Sequence record: SRR20825006_339
Length of the DNA stretch: 21,808 nucleotides
Strand: one strand, 5' to 3'
The position numbers and the translations under genes are program-made. This document shows, one piece after another, positions 1,561 to 21,808 of the stretch (position 1 is its first letter; every line of letters begins with the position of its first letter). The notes beneath the pieces were generated by a model, which did not search any database, was not told the origin of the DNA, and worked only from the letters and a program-made list of their open reading frames with translations.

Positions 1561-3828
1561 CTAGTAGGTAAAAGTATGTGTGTATTTAATCAATACAGAA
1601 CGGCTTTGAACATTTGGTAAACGTGGATACCCAAACTGAAGTGGATCTCTATTCGTGTACTGTTGTTCGTTAAGAACTACCCAAAAATCTCTCCCTTCAC
1701 TAAAGTTATATCTGAACCTAAAATTAGCACCAGCTAACTCAGAGATATTGCTATACTGAACAAATAAACTAGCCGATAGTTTCTTGTTTAAAGCATATTG
1801 TCCTCGTAATTGAGCTAAATGTGCAGTGAATTTCTCTACATCTCTTCCAGCTATTGATGGGAAATCTAGTTTTGTGATTTGGTAACTACCACTTAATTCG
1901 AAATGGATGTTGGCAATCCATTTCGGTTCAACTTTAACTTGCGTTCTCTTGCCATCAAAAATATTGCCATACTCTAAACTGAATTTGCTTTTCAGACTTT
2001 TGTTTTCAGGTGTTTCATAGCTAAAAATAGATTCCACAAAAGCATAATTATCAACTGGAATATAAATTTGACCGACTAATTTAAAAGCTTCATTAGGAAG
2101 TAAGTGCTCTTGATTCAACTTTATTTCTGCGCCAACCTTGCCTGCACTTTTAAATTCTCCATCCCATTGTGCTCCTATAAAACGGCTTCTTAAATCAAAA
2201 CTTTCATTTTCTGAAATGTTATAACTCGAAACCTGAAAAGTATTTTTTTTGAATGCGGAATTGCTTGGAGATAGAATTCCGTAACCTAAACTATAGTAAT
2301 AATCGGATGTATTCTTAGTGCGGTAGAAACCAATACCTGGTTCAAAATCTGCACCTGTTCGGTTTACAAAGAATCTGTAGTACAAGCCAACGGATGCTCT
2401 ACGTTGCCATGTAATTCTGAAGATGCTATTATTATCAATTCCCCAACGTCGCTCATCAGGAACTCGATTATCCATCGTCTGACTAACTTTAGTTTCGATA
2501 TAATCATCTCCAAAAATATTGAAGTCAGTATCAATACCCAGCACCAAGTTCGTGTTCCCTTCTGCATCTAAACGGCTAGTGAGCAATCCACCTACATAAG
2601 AGTTCGAGTTAACCACCTTCTTTTTAAGCCTCAGAACGCTAAAATTTTCTGAATTAAGGTTAGCATTGCTCGCTGTTTGCATGTTGATAAACCCAACATC
2701 TAAATCACCAACTCGGCCCGTTAGACGTGCTCCACCATAAATACGCACAGGATTGCCACTATTGTCTAATCCAACTTTTCGGCTATAGAATAATTTTGTA
2801 TTGCCAAAGCTAAAATCAAATAGCCCCGATCGTTGTTGGAAGAATTGTCTCTTTTCATCGAAGGACAATGAGAACCTTGTTAGGTTTAGTTGCTGGTCGT
2901 CTGCTTCCACTTGAGCAAAATCTGTATTTGCGGTAACATCAAGTGTTAGGTTAGAGGTCACGTTGTACTTCAAGTCGAATCCGATTTCAGCAGCTGTATC
3001 GTCCTTGTAATTGTATTCTGTATTGGTTGAATTAAGCTGATTTTCGCGAGTAAATCCTGTTACTGCATACGGAGTGAAATAAATCGGTTTCTTAGACTCA
3101 ACGCCTGTCAATATTATATCCTGAGCTTGAGAAGGTTTTATATTTCCTTGGTCCCAATTTGGGGGAATAGCTGGAAAGATATAACGCTCGTTATGGTAAG
3201 CCAACCAACGGTAAACAATAAGTCCCATTTCTGCCACGCCATCGCTACTCTGGAATCCAATACTTGAAAGCGGAATTCTAATTTCAGCAAACCATCCCTC
3301 GTCTGTTTCAGTAGTAACCACATCCCAATAGGTATTCCAACTTCCATTCACAGCGTTTGAGCCCGCAATAGAATTTGCATCATTTGAAATAGATTGATCA
3401 AATCGAACACCTGCTGGAGTTGTAAAGAACCTTAATCCATTCTGGTTATCATTAAATGGATCTAAAATAATAGCAAATACATCATCCGAACTATAACGAT
3501 CTCGATACAAACTATTTGCCGCTATTGTTGATGCATCTTTAGTATACATCTTCCCTGCTGCGTAGAAATATTCGTCATCGTAGGCTACACGCACATCCGT
3601 TTTCTCTTGCATTTCGCCCATAAAAACGGGTTCATACTGTACCATTGTGAACGGAGTAATATTTTGCCATGCAGCTTCATTAATCACACCATCTAGCGTA
3701 ATTGGGGAAGTTATTTTGGTAAGTTTAATAGCGTTTTGAGCCTTTGCTTGTACTGCAAAAATTAAAGCGAGTTGTAAAACGAGAAGAGTTCTTAGCAATA
3801 TTCCAATCCAGTATTTTTGAGCAAGCAA
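1561..3828 (-). CDS. DUF5916-family protein (N-terminal CBM9-like domain plus predicted outer-membrane beta-barrel)
   Basis: 755-aa ORF with a signal peptide (LVLQLALIFAVQAKA), CBM9-like motifs (ITLDGVINEAAW, VRVAYDDEYFY, GWFAEIRIPLSSI), the family motif NTDFAQVEAD..LNLTRFSL.FDEKRQFF, and a C-terminal aromatic beta-strand (KYTHTFTY). The TTG start is uncertain. Its stop directly abuts the stop of the convergent gene. Confidence 0.85.
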   Translation of the reverse strand: MLAQKYWIGILLRTLLVLQLALIFAVQAKAQNAIKLTKITSPITLDGVINEAAWQNITPFTMVQYEPVFMGEMQEKTDVRVAYDDEYFYAAGKMYTKDASTIAANSLYRDRYSSDDVFAIILDPFNDNQNGLRFFTTPAGVRFDQSISNDANSIAGSNAVNGSWNTYWDVVTTETDEGWFAEIRIPLSSIGFQSSDGVAEMGLIVYRWLAYHNERYIFPAIPPNWDQGNIKPSQAQDIILTGVESKKPIYFTPYAVTGFTRENQLNSTNTEYNYKDDTAAEIGFDLKYNVTSNLTLDVTANTDFAQVEADDQQLNLTRFSLSFDEKRQFFQQRSGLFDFSFGNTKLFYSRKVGLDNSGNPVRIYGGARLTGRVGDLDVGFINMQTASNANLNSENFSVLRLKKKVVNSNSYVGGLLTSRLDAEGNTNLVLGIDTDFNIFGDDYIETKVSQTMDNRVPDERRWGIDNNSIFRITWQRRASVGLYYRFFVNRTGADFEPGIGFYRTKNTSDYYYSLGYGILSPSNSAFKKNTFQVSSYNISENESFDLRSRFIGAQWDGEFKSAGKVGAEIKLNQEHLLPNEAFKLVGQIYIPVDNYAFVESIFSYETPENKSLKSKFSLEYGNIFDGKRTQVKVEPKWIANIHFELSGSYQITKLDFPSIAGRDVEKFTAHLAQLRGQYALNKKLSASLFVQYSNISELAGANFRFRYNFSEGRDFWVVLNEQQYTNRDPLQFGYPRLPNVQSRSVLIKYTHTFTY

Positions 3829-10375: not shown

Positions 10376-11323
10376 ATGGAAATTGTAGAATTAGTCAGCA
10401 AAGTTTTAGTTGGTCTTTTTGGCGTATTTTTAGTGTTCAAAATCATCCAGTCGTTACGTATGGTACCCAACCAATTCGCTTTTATTGTAGAGCGTTTAGG
10501 CAACTATCAGAAAACCTTGGGGCCTGGCTTTCATGCGCTTATCCCCTTTCTGGACAAGGTAGTTTATAAGCAAGATTTACGGGAAGAAACCATTGAAGTA
10601 GAACCCCAAGAGTGCTTCACCAAAGATAACGTAAAAGTTGAAGTTGATGGTGTCATATATCTAAGTGTGATGGATCCTGTAAACGCGAGCTATGGCGTTA
10701 CCAATTATCGCTACGCTGCTATTCAGCTAGCGCAAACAACTACTCGTTCTGTAATCGGTCTCATGGACTTAGATGAAACTTTTGAAGAACGTGCTAAAAT
10801 GAGCAAGAAGGTTGTTGAAGTGCTAAGTGAGATGGAAATACCTTGGGGAATCAAAGTTCATCGTTACGAAATAAAGAACATTGTAACTCCACGTACGGTA
10901 CAAAATGCTATGGAACGACAAATGACCGCAGAACGTGATCGCCGTGCCGTAATTGCGAAGTCTGAAGGGTTTAAAGGTGCCAAAGTAAACGATGCTGAAG
11001 GTTTAAAAACAGAGATGATTAACATTTCTGAAGCCGAGATGCAGCGCCAAATTAACGAAGCTGAAGGTTTAGCTAACGAAATTGAAGCACTTGCCGAAGC
11101 AACAGCGGTATCCATCGAGAAAATTGCTGAAGCTCTTTCTCAACCTATGGGAACTCAAGCCATGCAATTGCGCCTAGCTGAAAAATACCTTGGTACGCTA
11201 TCTGGTCTTGGACGTGAGGAAAACAACATCATCCTCCCTAAAGACATTTCAAACTATGATGCGGTAATGTCTGGCCTTTCATTAGAGGATATCATCATCG
11301 ATTCAAAAAAGGTAAAAAGCTGA
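10376..11323 (+). CDS. SPFH/band-7 stomatin-like (paraslipin-type) protein 2
   Basis: N-terminal TM, VERLGNY..LGPGFHALIPFLDKV, TKDNVKVEVDG, LAQTTTRS, WGIKVHRYEIKNI and MERQMTAERDRRA. GGAGG at 10362-10366 precedes the ATG. Confidence 0.95.
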   Translation: MEIVELVSKVLVGLFGVFLVFKIIQSLRMVPNQFAFIVERLGNYQKTLGPGFHALIPFLDKVVYKQDLREETIEVEPQECFTKDNVKVEVDGVIYLSVMDPVNASYGVTNYRYAAIQLAQTTTRSVIGLMDLDETFEERAKMSKKVVEVLSEMEIPWGIKVHRYEIKNIVTPRTVQNAMERQMTAERDRRAVIAKSEGFKGAKVNDAEGLKTEMINISEAEMQRQINEAEGLANEIEALAEATAVSIEKIAEALSQPMGTQAMQLRLAEKYLGTLSGLGREENNIILPKDISNYDAVMSGLSLEDIIIDSKKVKS

Positions 11324-11381
11324 TAGGTTATTCAGAAACAAATACCTGATTATCAATAAATTGAGAATTAAGGAGATTGGT

Positions 11382-11414
11382 AACTGGGGAGTATTTCCCC
11401 AGTTCTTCTGTTCT
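11382..11414 (+). terminator. Probable intrinsic terminator of the nfeD-SPFH operon
   Basis: Perfect 9-bp stem aactgggga (11382-11390) / tccccagtt (11396-11404), 5-nt loop, pyrimidine-rich tail cttctgttct. Confidence 0.65.
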
Positions 11415-11487
11415 GTAATAATGAATATGTTTTTCACCGCTTTTCTCTTAGCTACAATGTGATGAACAAAAAGATTCTATAAAAAAC

Positions 11488-11532
11488 TGTCTGAACCATG
11501 ATTAATTAATGATTAATTGATATGCTATGATA
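11488..11532 (+). repeat. Left arm of the inverted repeat flanking the GxxExxY gene
   Basis: tgtctgaaccatGATTaattaatGATTaattGATAtgctatGATA. The first 16 nt match the reverse complement of 11947-11962 at 14/16, and the outer 9 nt match perfectly. Confidence 0.8.
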
Positions 11533-12009
11533 AATGAAAATTACAAATACAGTGATTTGACTTCAAAAATTATTGGATTTAGTATGACTGTTCATAATTC
11601 ATTGGGGTGTGGTTTTCAGGAAGTAATTTATCAGCGTGCACTAGAGATAGAAATGGCAGAAGGTGATTTAAATTTTAGTAGAGAGTTTGAAATGCCTGTT
11701 TATTACAAGAACCAACAAATAGGAACCCGTAGAGTTGATTTTTTGGTTGAAGGAAAAATTTCTGTAGAATTAAAAGCCTTAACGAAATTAGAAGATGTCC
11801 ATCTTGCACAAGCAATCAACTATTTAGAGGCATACGATTTGGAAGTTGGTTTACTTGTAAATTTTGGTTCAAAGAGTTTAGAGTTTAAACGCTTATCCAA
11901 TAAAAAGTTTAACCAAAAGAATCAAGGCAATCCTAAAATCAAGTGGAATCAAAGTTCAGACAATAGAGACCCAATACTACTCTTAATCACCCTTCTCATT
12001 CCCCAATGA
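11527..12009 (+). CDS. GxxExxY protein (PD-(D/E)xK nuclease fold)
   Basis: VHNSLGCGFQEVIYQRAL contains the GxxExxY signature. RVDFLVEGKISVELKA is the D...ExK catalytic motif, followed by HLAQAINYL and GLLVNFG. The C-terminal ~30 aa come from read-through of the right repeat arm and beyond. ATGA overlap with the next gene. Confidence 0.95.
   Translation: MINENYKYSDLTSKIIGFSMTVHNSLGCGFQEVIYQRALEIEMAEGDLNFSREFEMPVYYKNQQIGTRRVDFLVEGKISVELKALTKLEDVHLAQAINYLEAYDLEVGLLVNFGSKSLEFKRLSNKKFNQKNQGNPKIKWNQSSDNRDPILLLITLLIPQ
11920..11962 (+). repeat. Right arm of the inverted repeat flanking the GxxExxY gene
   Basis: AATCaaggcAATCctaaAATCaagtggAATCaaagttcagaca, with AATC at 11920, 11929, 11937 and 11947 and terminal gttcagaca at 11954-11962. 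Confidence 0.8.
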
Positions 12010-13028
12010 AAATCCAAACCCTCCTATTCCTTCTTTGCCTCTTCCCTTGTTGGTTACACGCTCAGCTTTTGCCAGGATTTCAAGCTTCGGGTTCTTTTGA
12101 TGAACAACAGCTTCTTATTAAAAGTGAAGAAACCAACACTCGGATTTTAATCAATGCTCCACTAGACGGATTTGAAAAGTCGGATCAGGTTTTGTTAGTA
12201 TTTTATGCCCTTCCGAATGGAAATACCATTGAACAGACTTTCGGAAAGGTTACAACGGAAACCGATGATTGGCATTTTAACATCCAACATATTGGGGCAC
12301 AAACTCGGTTTATAAGAAGAGAAGTAAGTCAAAAAACAGTAGTTGTAGTGTATTTGGAAGCCAATCAAAAAAGCTGGCCTTCTTGGAAAAGAGAAAACCC
12401 CAAATACCTTTCGGATACACAGAAGTTAGTAGATGAAATCACAGCTTTATTCGCTGATTGGGAACCAGAGATTGTGCTAAATTCCCATAGCGGTGGAGGT
12501 CGATTTATCTTCAATTATCTAGATGCGGTTGAACACGTTCCAACATCCATAAAGCGCATTGCTTTCTTGGATAGCGACTATGGTTACGAAGATGAAGCCC
12601 ACGGACCTAAACTCGTTCATTGGTTGAATTCCACTAAAGACGCCAAACTTGCTGTAATCGCCTATAATGATAGTGTGGTAGTTTATAATGGCAAACCTCT
12701 GGTCTCGCCTACGGGAGGAACATGGTACCGCAGCAAACAAATGAAGAACTTTCTGGCAAAGTCTTTTCCTCTGGATGAAGTGAAGCAAGATTCACTGCTT
12801 TGGTATACTTCTCCTCAAAGGAGAATCGAGTTTATCCTAAAAACGAATCCCAATAATAAGATTTATCATTCCGTACAGGTAGAGCGTAATGGTTTTATCC
12901 ACAGCATGCTTAGCGGAACTCCTTTTGAGGAAAAGAATTACCGCTATTTTGGAGATCGAGCTTATTCTAAATTCATCGCAGATAGTGTAATTCTTCCAAC
13001 AGAACACTTAAGCAGTATTCCACGCTGA
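12006..13028 (+). CDS. Secreted hypothetical protein, probable alpha/beta-hydrolase fold
   Basis: Signal peptide (MKIQTLLFLLCLFPCWLHA), nucleophile-elbow-like IVLNSHSGGGR, a downstream IAFLDS strand and a late His (KIYHSV). Confidence 0.65.
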   Translation: MKIQTLLFLLCLFPCWLHAQLLPGFQASGSFDEQQLLIKSEETNTRILINAPLDGFEKSDQVLLVFYALPNGNTIEQTFGKVTTETDDWHFNIQHIGAQTRFIRREVSQKTVVVVYLEANQKSWPSWKRENPKYLSDTQKLVDEITALFADWEPEIVLNSHSGGGRFIFNYLDAVEHVPTSIKRIAFLDSDYGYEDEAHGPKLVHWLNSTKDAKLAVIAYNDSVVVYNGKPLVSPTGGTWYRSKQMKNFLAKSFPLDEVKQDSLLWYTSPQRRIEFILKTNPNNKIYHSVQVERNGFIHSMLSGTPFEEKNYRYFGDRAYSKFIADSVILPTEHLSSIPR

Positions 13029-21631: not shown

Positions 21632-21691
21632 TTTAGCAGTTAGGATTCTGAGATAGATTTAAGGAAAGCAGTCGTCTTACGTCTTACACCT

Positions 21692-21725
21692 AATCCTGTA
21701 AATCCAATAAATCATAGTTCAGAGA
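21692..21725 (+). repeat. Gene-less copy of the GxxExxY right-arm repeat
   Basis: AATCctgtaAATCcaataAATCatagttcagaga. Positions 21710-21725 match 11947-11962 (aatcaaagttcagaca) at 14/16, with a 9-nt AATC period. Confidence 0.75.
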
Positions 21726-21772
21726 TTAAGTTATTGAGAGATTATGTGTAGGCGTTGATTTTAGCTCTGCCT

Positions 21773-21807
21773 CATTCATAATTTTGAATTATTAATTCTC
21801 AATTCCC
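21773..21807. repeat. Heptamer tandem repeat (AATTnnn x5)
   Basis: cattcat-aattttg-aattatt-aattctc-aattccc, running to the window edge. Confidence 0.6.
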
Positions 21808-21808
21808 C

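Follow-up and report, generated by a model that had tools for sequence, protein, structure and literature searches.

REP/REPIN-RAYT systems (REPtrons) have one small gene between inverted short repeats of the repetitive extragenic palindromic (REP) type; the repeats also occur as gene-less doublets and fall into classes by gene subgroup. Insertion sequences (IS) with terminal inverted repeats (TIRs) and miniature inverted-repeat transposable elements (MITEs) combine such ends with subterminal repeats resembling binding sites, are found in many contexts, and include gene-less derivatives that keep the ends. Free-standing homing endonuclease genes, including those of the PD-(D/E)XK type, are lone small nuclease genes of patchy distribution that lie between undisrupted neighbours. 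Such traits recur in the element studied here, a 475-bp unit at positions 11488-11962 of a 21,808-nt DNA stretch from sequence record SRR20825006_339 (the window), in which one GxxExxY nuclease gene lies between inverted arms.

Compared with REP/RAYT, the gene of this cassette encodes a PD-(D/E)XK nuclease (PF13366 only) and not a Y1 HUH (PF01797) transposase, and its arms consist of 8-9-bp termini plus four phased 5-mers instead of GC-rich REP hairpins. REPs reach tens to hundreds of copies per genome, whereas the copy number of the cassette is low and many dispersed gene-less copies per genome were not encountered. Given this low copy number, the REP/RAYT analogy drawn in the first-pass annotation, an earlier note on this DNA, is loose. 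Inverted repeats and gene-less doublets are common to both. Homing genes can do without inverted termini and arrays and do not produce gene-less copies that retain both ends, whereas the cassette has all of these. Unlike TIR insertion sequences, it has no known transposase and no target-site duplication (27 loci), no recent multi-copy expansion was seen, and at about 470 bp it is smaller than any autonomous IS known to us. On balance, 11488-11962 is probably a canonical copy, 475 bp long, of a mini-cassette that is widespread, spreads horizontally, and is moved by its own nuclease. That the cassette is a real unit is held with far more confidence than the role of the enzyme, whose part in mobilisation we infer from sequence comparison. 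The cassette seems to be selfish DNA of a kind not yet described, and the copy present here is old and decaying.

The cassette has three parts, namely one GxxExxY gene, 8-9-bp termini of the form (T)GTCTGAAC ... GTTCAGAC(A), and, in each arm, four TGATT/AATCA sites phased at about 9 nt. In the window, the left terminal inverted repeat TGTCTGAAC, with the conserved core GTCTGAAC, occupies 11488-11496 on the + strand, and its reverse complement GTTCAGACA forms the right terminus at 11954-11962 (+ strand). The left array (11499-11532, + strand) comprises TGATT at 11499-11503 and 11510-11514 and TGATA at 11518-11522 and 11528-11532. The right array (11920-11951, + strand) comprises AATCA at 11920-11924, AATCC at 11929-11933, and AATCA at 11937-11941 and 11947-11951, which read TGATT/GGATT on the - strand. 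Read as tetramers on the + strand, the left-arm sites begin at 11500 and 11511 (GATT) and at 11519 and 11529 (GATA), and four - strand GATT sites lie within 11920-11950; the site spacings are 11/8/10 in the left arm and 10/8/9 in the right. The 16-nt arms pair at 14/16 positions (88% complementarity). The coordinates, the perfect outer 9 bp, the 14/16 match, and the tetramer spacings given in the first-pass annotation were all recovered when the sequence was read again. Its description of the tetramers as lying about one helical turn apart was right as to regular phasing, but the period in relatives is nearer 9 nt than a full turn. The left terminus lies 39 nt before the start codon ATG at 11527, which the last left-array site overlaps, and the right array is also the coding sequence of the C-terminal tail of the protein (NQGNPKIKWNQ in the window).

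Relatives were sought in species-representative genomes, where 565 were found among 600 candidate stretches, and the best 80 were used for the flanks. The proteins of these best 80 were 73-82% identical to that of the window, plus one at 99% from an uncultured Balneolaceae metagenome-assembled genome (MAG) (L071). They were assigned to Bacteroidota (Chitinophagaceae, Saprospiraceae, Bacteroidales), Ignavibacteria, the candidate phyla radiation (CPR) groups Dojkabacteria and Gracilibacteria, Dehalococcoidia, Burkholderiales, Akkermansia, cyanobacteria (Pseudanabaena), and others. Since GxxExxY paralogues inside the genus of the window are 31-63% identical to its protein, the gene lineage has crossed phyla. 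Four of the 80 loci were too near a contig end, leaving 76 usable ones, L071 included. The left terminus was found with at most one mismatch within 120 nt upstream in 57/76 relatives, mostly 36-39 nt before the ATG, and the right terminus, again with at most one mismatch, within 150 nt downstream in 61/76, a few of these being a spurious coding match (GTTCAAACA at +14). Both termini were present in 49/76. Displaced control windows from the same loci gave a left-like match in 5/283 cases and a right-like match in 9/283. The upstream arm of the relatives reads (T)GTCTGAAC-yn-TGATT-n4-TGATT-aaa-TGAT-n5-ATGATT and the downstream arm AATCAAGGyAATCCnAAAATCAAATAAATCAnAGTTCAGACA. Homologous genes without paired arms, which the first-pass annotation had named as evidence against its proposal, were therefore not the pattern found, as the closest relatives carry the same arms (both termini in 49/76).

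Geometry was compared in the 27 loci that had both termini in the modal position with at most two mismatches. Unit length was 464-491 bp with a mode of 472, against 475 in the window. GATW sites averaged 3.5 per 45-nt arm on the left and 4.0 on the right, and were spaced mostly 8-10 nt apart on the left and by 9 nt in 58/81 intervals on the right. The surroundings were diverse: at least 23 different contexts flanked the cassette, and the 27 loci had 25 distinct left flanks. The units sit flush between neighbouring genes, at junctions such as hsdS|hsdR, hsdR|hsdS, hsdS|rhuM, SPFH|p340, and others. The base directly 3′ of the right terminus was A in 25/27 loci, the ATG of the downstream gene lay 0-2 nt past the right terminus in 14/14 loci where it was callable, and the upstream ORF terminated on the TGA inside TGTCTGAAC in 4/6 loci examined. 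The TGATT-class GxxExxY cassette was defined from the relatives L072-L150, and the window shows its features, with both termini perfect, 4 + 4 phased sites, and a length of 475 bp. The cassette is a discrete unit with conserved ends that recurs across phyla and contexts and has gene-less derivatives.

These derivatives, 50 "mini" elements of 79-164 nt, were found in 36/79 loci within 1.5 kb of the relatives' genes, usually abutting a gene. In each, the left terminus is followed by 2-4 TGATT sites, and after a short loop come 2-4 AATCA sites and the right terminus. In the lineage of the window, the origin of such copies is illustrated by genome G015, whose orthologous cassette has shrunk to an 80-bp relic. 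A degenerate relative of the arms without a gene lies in the window at 21632-21727 on the - strand. In it, cTCTGAAC-TATGATT is followed by phased GGATT sites, then by a loop and partial AATC sites, and the right terminus is lacking; its hairpin fold is weak (z -0.7 to -1.0). The core TCTGAACYWTGATT occurred in 14 copies in 7/23 genomes of the genus, 11 of them in the clade of the window (6 at the locus and 5 elsewhere), compared with 3 for a control pattern. The extra core copies lie in composite repeat clusters, and their DNA folds no better than shuffled sequence; thus, the gene-less copies of this clade are degenerate solo arms and not clean hairpins. Composite intergenic clusters of this kind (window 21728-21808; L061, L063, L070) contain GAATT-type arrays, a TCTGAAC-TGATT arm, and TAAGAY arrays, and the cluster at L070 adjoins REP-like GCTCC...GGAGC hairpins of the RAYT class.

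The following mechanism would account for these features. Several copies of the nuclease would bind the phased sites on both arms, and the bound multimer would bring the two ends together. The nuclease would then cut at the termini (GTCTGAAC), this step and any transposition chemistry being conjectural, and the cut would move the cassette and its internally deleted gene-less derivatives into short intergenic gaps. The inserted ends could give the upstream gene a stop codon, and the downstream start codon would lie 0-2 nt beyond them. A more general proposal, which we put forward tentatively as a reasonable possibility, is that GxxExxY cassettes form a new class of autonomous mobile element of about 470 bp, with a 125-139-aa nuclease as its own "transposase," recognition through arrays, cuts at GTCTGAAC, no target duplication, insertion at gene junctions, and MITE-like copies. 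To our knowledge, no smaller autonomous bacterial mobile element has been described.

The nuclease gene of the window occupies 11527-12009 on the + strand and encodes 160 aa, with the domain at residues 10-122. The protein matched the PF13366 (PDDEXK_3) profile over residues 10-122 with an E value of 1.1e-37 (129.4 bits, cut-off 22) and TIGR04256 "GxxExxY protein" with 2.2e-39 (134.4 bits, cut-off 35). The Pfam scan of the ORF returned PF13366 alone and no DDE, serine, tyrosine, or HUH transposase, so that the unit contains no known transposase, as had been proposed. A protein alignment was built from 59 sequences, comprising the window, every second one of 78 close relatives free of stops (39 sequences), and 19 genus paralogues. 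The columns invariant in all 59 (G27, G29, E32, Y35, D71, E81, K83, Q95, L110, N112, F113) make up the GxGxxExxY helix and the D...ExK site (D71/E81/K83), both present in the protein of the window. The AlphaFold2 model made with this alignment had a mean pLDDT of 93.6 and the order helix-helix-strand-strand-strand-helix-strand-strand. Its best Foldseek matches in the PDB were Cas4 SSO0001 (4ic1, E 6.7e-5, TM 0.51-0.59), lambda exonuclease, other Cas4 proteins, MGME1, and the Holliday-junction resolvase Hjc (1gef, target TM 0.54). By sequence, no solved structure in the PDB matched, the best E value being 0.99. The model and the invariant site support a PD-(D/E)XK fold, and the protein is a predicted nuclease; the fold assignment of the first-pass annotation agrees with this. 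The predicted fold and the D...ExK site are common to the GxxExxY protein and nucleases of the Cas4/RecB type, lambda exonuclease, and Hjc, but the likeness is at the fold level, with 9-20% identity and no sequence-level match in the PDB. Unlike Cas4-type nucleases, the GxxExxY protein has 125-139 aa and lacks the Fe-S cluster module.

The canonical stop codon, a TAA inside the right array, is replaced in the window (AAG TGG), and the frame runs through the right terminus to end on a TGA that overlaps the ATG of the next gene (12006). In relatives, the stop preceded the right terminus in 38/45 cases, of which 27 were proteins of 139 aa ending in ...NQGNPKIK, while 7/45 read through. The window is among this minority and lacks the class feature of a TAA in the right array before the terminus. 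The unit had been said to hold just the nuclease core; this needs correction, since the right array codes for the C-terminal tail and the ORF passes the right terminus to 12009.

The history of the locus was followed in the nearest genome (G001, 96% DNA identity to the window) and in the genus (23 genomes). The gene SPFH2 was present in 23/23 of the genus genomes, with the convergent M23 gene directly next to it in 16. The cassette is intact in the window and in G001, where the right array has 10 bp (AATCAAGTGG) duplicated, which shifts the frame of the tail; the same 10-bp unit is also duplicated in one of four environmental runs (X4). G013 has stops, a 1-bp deletion, and a left array missing an 11-bp unit. 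What is left in G015 is an 80-bp relic that has both ends and, between them, a portion of the left array and some 20 nt from the 5′ part of the coding sequence. In G014, about 600 bp, corresponding to about 11382-11980 of the window, are taken up by an unrelated gene that encodes 139 aa with a signal peptide. The gene looks dispensable in the lineage of the window, and the copy there is an old, vertically inherited, fixed, and decaying insertion that gives no sign of current activity. Comparison of SPFH-M23 loci for empty sites, as proposed earlier, yielded the relic and the pseudogene but no clean empty site that would define the boundaries. As for the possibility, raised in the same place, that the gene is syntenically fixed across relatives, it is fixed in the lineage of the window, whereas relatives lie in at least 23 contexts.

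Several results weigh against a mobile cassette and are set out here with the alternatives they bear on. The 9-bp repeat alone is at chance level: the window contained 4 pairs of 9-bp inverted repeats with a 14/16 extension lying 100-1000 nt apart, versus 2.3 ± 2.2 in 100 dinucleotide shuffles, and 24 inverted pairs were found in 901 nt. The inverted-repeat score of the window lay in the 7% tail (ungapped) or the 12% tail (gapped) of mismatched control pairings, which is not significant alone; 12% of the mismatched control pairings score as high, and the inverted repeat of the window is weak by itself. The shuffle counts would suit arms that are a chance inverted match in AT-rich DNA. However, the pattern of four GAT[T/A] sites separated by 4-7-nt spacers has just two instances in the 21.8-kb window, and these two are the arms, one per strand; the mean in shuffles was 0.016, and 0/500 shuffles reached two. 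Because this pattern was defined after the arms had been seen, the independent test is the conservation of termini and arrays in relatives, which was found in 49/76 from other phyla. A chance match is already refuted by these counts. The expectation in the first-pass annotation that shuffled sequence might contain equally many inverted matches was thus borne out for the 9-bp repeat and not for the phased arrays. With the arrays and the relatives taken into account, none of the three outcomes that the annotation had named against its proposal applies, and its interpretation is supported.

Other adverse results concern movement itself. No consistent direct repeat was found outside the termini in the 27 loci, whose flanks nearly all differ, and the lack of a target-site duplication is thus a family trait; that none was obvious in the window, as noted at first, is also correct. 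No clean empty site for the copy of the window was found among the sister genomes, whose states are a pseudogene, a relic, and, in G014, a difference wider than the unit, so that no clean empty site defines the ends of this copy. In four environmental contig runs over 10900-12600, the cassette was in place in all and no joint skipped the unit, these being contigs, in which rare excised forms would not show. Outside the locus, the terminus-plus-TGATT pattern was at control level in G001 and G013-G015, where a shorter core gave 5 extra matches versus 0 for the control. In five cultured genomes, counts were at or near control level, with exact matches amounting to one cluster in four of them and none in the fifth. 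No recent intragenomic jump was seen: two copies in one MAG were 72% identical in DNA, and the only cassette pairs more than 90% identical share flanks or come from related bins. The spread across phyla could also be due in part to hitch-hiking with mobile defence loci.

Neighbour proteins of the relatives were scanned in 15 cases, yielding 4 HsdR, 5 HsdS, and 1 each of YhcG, Fic, RhuM, and Schlafen/AlbA. YhcG, Fic, and RhuM are genes often embedded in type I restriction-modification operons and, together with HsdR and HsdS, make up 12/15 of the neighbours. Judged by these 15 proteins, the TGATT-class cassettes (L072-L143) lie mostly inside type I restriction-modification loci.

An account without self-mobilisation would take the arms as operator or translation-control sites and give the nuclease a cellular or defence role, with the cassette spreading passively along with islands. 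The neighbours just described (12/15 HsdR, HsdS, or genes commonly embedded in such operons) are what this account would lead one to expect, as are the low copy number per genome, the lack of a target duplication in the 27 relatives, and the fact that no recent intragenomic copies were seen; moreover, both arrays touch the gene, the left one through its last site, which overlaps the start codon, and the right one by being coding. It is nevertheless unlikely. The same termini occur at different junctions, with 25 distinct left flanks in 27 loci, and the 50 gene-less elements keep termini and arrays with no gene left to regulate. The terminal 9-mers lie outside the ORF as an inverted pair that neither a promoter nor a terminator needs. 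Hitch-hiking with type I restriction-modification leaves the different junctions and the gene-less copies unexplained.

The inverted arms could also be read as nucleic-acid structure, pairing in the transcript or in single-stranded DNA (ssDNA) as a processed bulged stem that loops out the gene. ORF-bearing 23S rRNA intervening sequences likewise have a short ORF within inverted arms able to pair. Minimum-free-energy and centroid RNA folds of 11470-11980 do pair the termini and the GAUU/AAUC sites, but the fold is no better than that of shuffles (z -1.27; 12/100 shuffles fold as well). The test for compensatory changes between arms suggested in the first-pass annotation was made on the terminal 9-mers of the 27 relatives and found none. 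Among 243 terminal position pairs, 222 had the consensus on both arms, 12 were changed on the left only, and 8 on the right only; of the 21 changes, 1 affected both arms without matching and 0 were compensated. Beyond the terminus, the identity of the left arm to the reverse-complemented right arm was 0.49, against 0.41 for arms of different loci, and the array spacers of the two arms are not complementary. Neither the window nor six further loci had an Rfam match at the gathering threshold, and the unit lies outside rRNA genes. In contrast to rRNA intervening sequences, the cassette lies between protein genes, has no compensatory changes, and encodes a different protein family. The arms are thus conserved as sequence and not as pairs. 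Since 0/21 changes were compensated and the spacers are not complementary, the tetramers are better regarded as putative protein-binding sites than as an RNA stem; of the two readings offered for them at first, this comparison favours protein-binding sites and makes the bulged RNA or ssDNA stem very improbable.

Mobilisation in trans has to be considered as well, with the cassette and its minis moved by a RAYT or another transposase and the GxxExxY gene as passenger or accessory. Y1/RAYT-like genes are encoded in G001 and G014, and minis outnumber genes locally. The PF01797 genes of these two genomes lie elsewhere, however, with different flanks: all 7 RAYT loci examined are flanked by other, GC-rich hairpins (GCTCC-n3-4-GGAGC in G001 and G014), with no GTCTGAAC/GTTCAGAC terminus nearby save for 2 one-mismatch matches. 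In G028, which has the cassette, nothing matched PF01797. Across phyla, the arms accompany the GxxExxY gene, and each GxxExxY group in the genus has an arm class of its own. An enzyme acting in trans is accordingly an improbable source of the movement, and the nuclease of the cassette is the preferred candidate.

PF13366 was found at 64 places in 21/23 genomes of the genus, with 0-9 per genome. We examined 27 loci, that is, 26 of 30 fetched plus the window, which form 15 groups at 80% protein identity. Counting 6-mers of arm motifs proved too noisy and was replaced by alignment-based scores and direct reading. The inverted-repeat scores of each locus's own upstream versus downstream sequence summed to 404, compared with 281 ± 19 for permuted pairings, and 0/5000 permutations reached 404. 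Long inverted repeats beyond the 1% tail were present in five of the 15 groups, with the window in the 12% tail. Arm classes differed by group (CACAGAG, GGATT/AATCC, CGCAAAG/CTTAGCG, CACGAA, GCGGAT). CACAGAG doublets numbered 58 in 13 genomes, as against 0 for a control pattern. The CACAGAG-class cassette lies between a conserved gene and scpB; this junction is empty (11-18 nt) in 5 genomes (G004, G007, G008, G020, G023) and holds an 89-nt gene-less relic in G022.

In relation to print, the cassette is a TIR/MITE-like or REP/RAYT-like system built on a nuclease family without an assigned function, and the copy in the window is an ordinary, ageing member of its class. A 2012 survey of PD-(D/E)XK proteins gives the GxxExxY/PF13366 family as "Unknown" (PMC3424549). 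In the main texts of the full-text literature found for GxxExxY, PF13366, or TIGR04256 and for PDDEXK with inverted repeats (including 10.1101/2021.01.26.428298), there were incidental mentions only and no description of the cassette, and no function assigned to GxxExxY/PF13366 was found in print. The family is large. If the nuclease mobilises its own arms, this would be a new enzymatic route to DNA mobility, would account for the thousands of small "hypothetical" genes that lie inserted in operons and in restriction-modification loci, and would offer a compact, sequence-programmed pair of nuclease and site for bench testing. For annotation, the arms matter because they give rise to ORFs that read through, to apparent fusions, and to stop codons donated to the neighbouring genes.

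One apparent fusion was read in G002, where a GxxExxY cassette without a stop codon lies between carB and recQ (L174, G002:C17:472300-477300, 2381-3000). Its frame runs into RecQ and yields an apparent fusion of more than 848 aa, the likely own ATG of RecQ being inside the right AATCA array; this read-through is the same effect as in the window. Open frames of 883-896 aa had been considered as intein-like in-frame insertions and were rejected, as in G002 they are a cassette ORF without a stop running into recQ. In G004 (L032) and G003 (L017), a CACGAA-class cassette lies between a putative succinate dehydrogenase membrane subunit gene and a putative sdhA, both recognized by eye. Farther afield, the cassette genes of a Saprospiraceae MAG (L140) and a Candidatus Gracilibacteria MAG (L144) are 100% identical with identical flanks, which could reflect a very recent transfer or a binning error.

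On its 5′ side, the unit is preceded by NfeD, two SPFH/Band_7 genes, and a terminator-like hairpin of the SPFH operon at 11382-11404 (+ strand). The unit thus follows the SPFH operon terminator, as first described; the hairpin is outside the cassette and inside the segment of about 600 bp that differs in G014. On the 3′ side lie a 340-aa gene (p340) and then the convergent M23 peptidase gene. The p340 protein (window 12006-13028) has a signal-peptide-like N-terminus, occurs in 4/23 genomes of the genus, and had no match in Pfam or NCBIfam. Just 3′ of SPFH2 in G012 (L041), a gene-less hairpin array of CTTAGCG/CGCAAAG units stands where the window has the cassette, and the same class flanks the tandem GxxExxY genes of G012 itself (L020/L036). 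The 3′ end of SPFH may be a site at which elements land repeatedly. Between the convergent SPFH2 and M23 genes, G016 (L054) and G009 (L056) have inserts of 390-470 nt. In the G016 insert, inverted CCAACAAGGAATATTCAAT-like sequences, which may be a split bidirectional terminator, enclose a membrane ORF of 77 aa.

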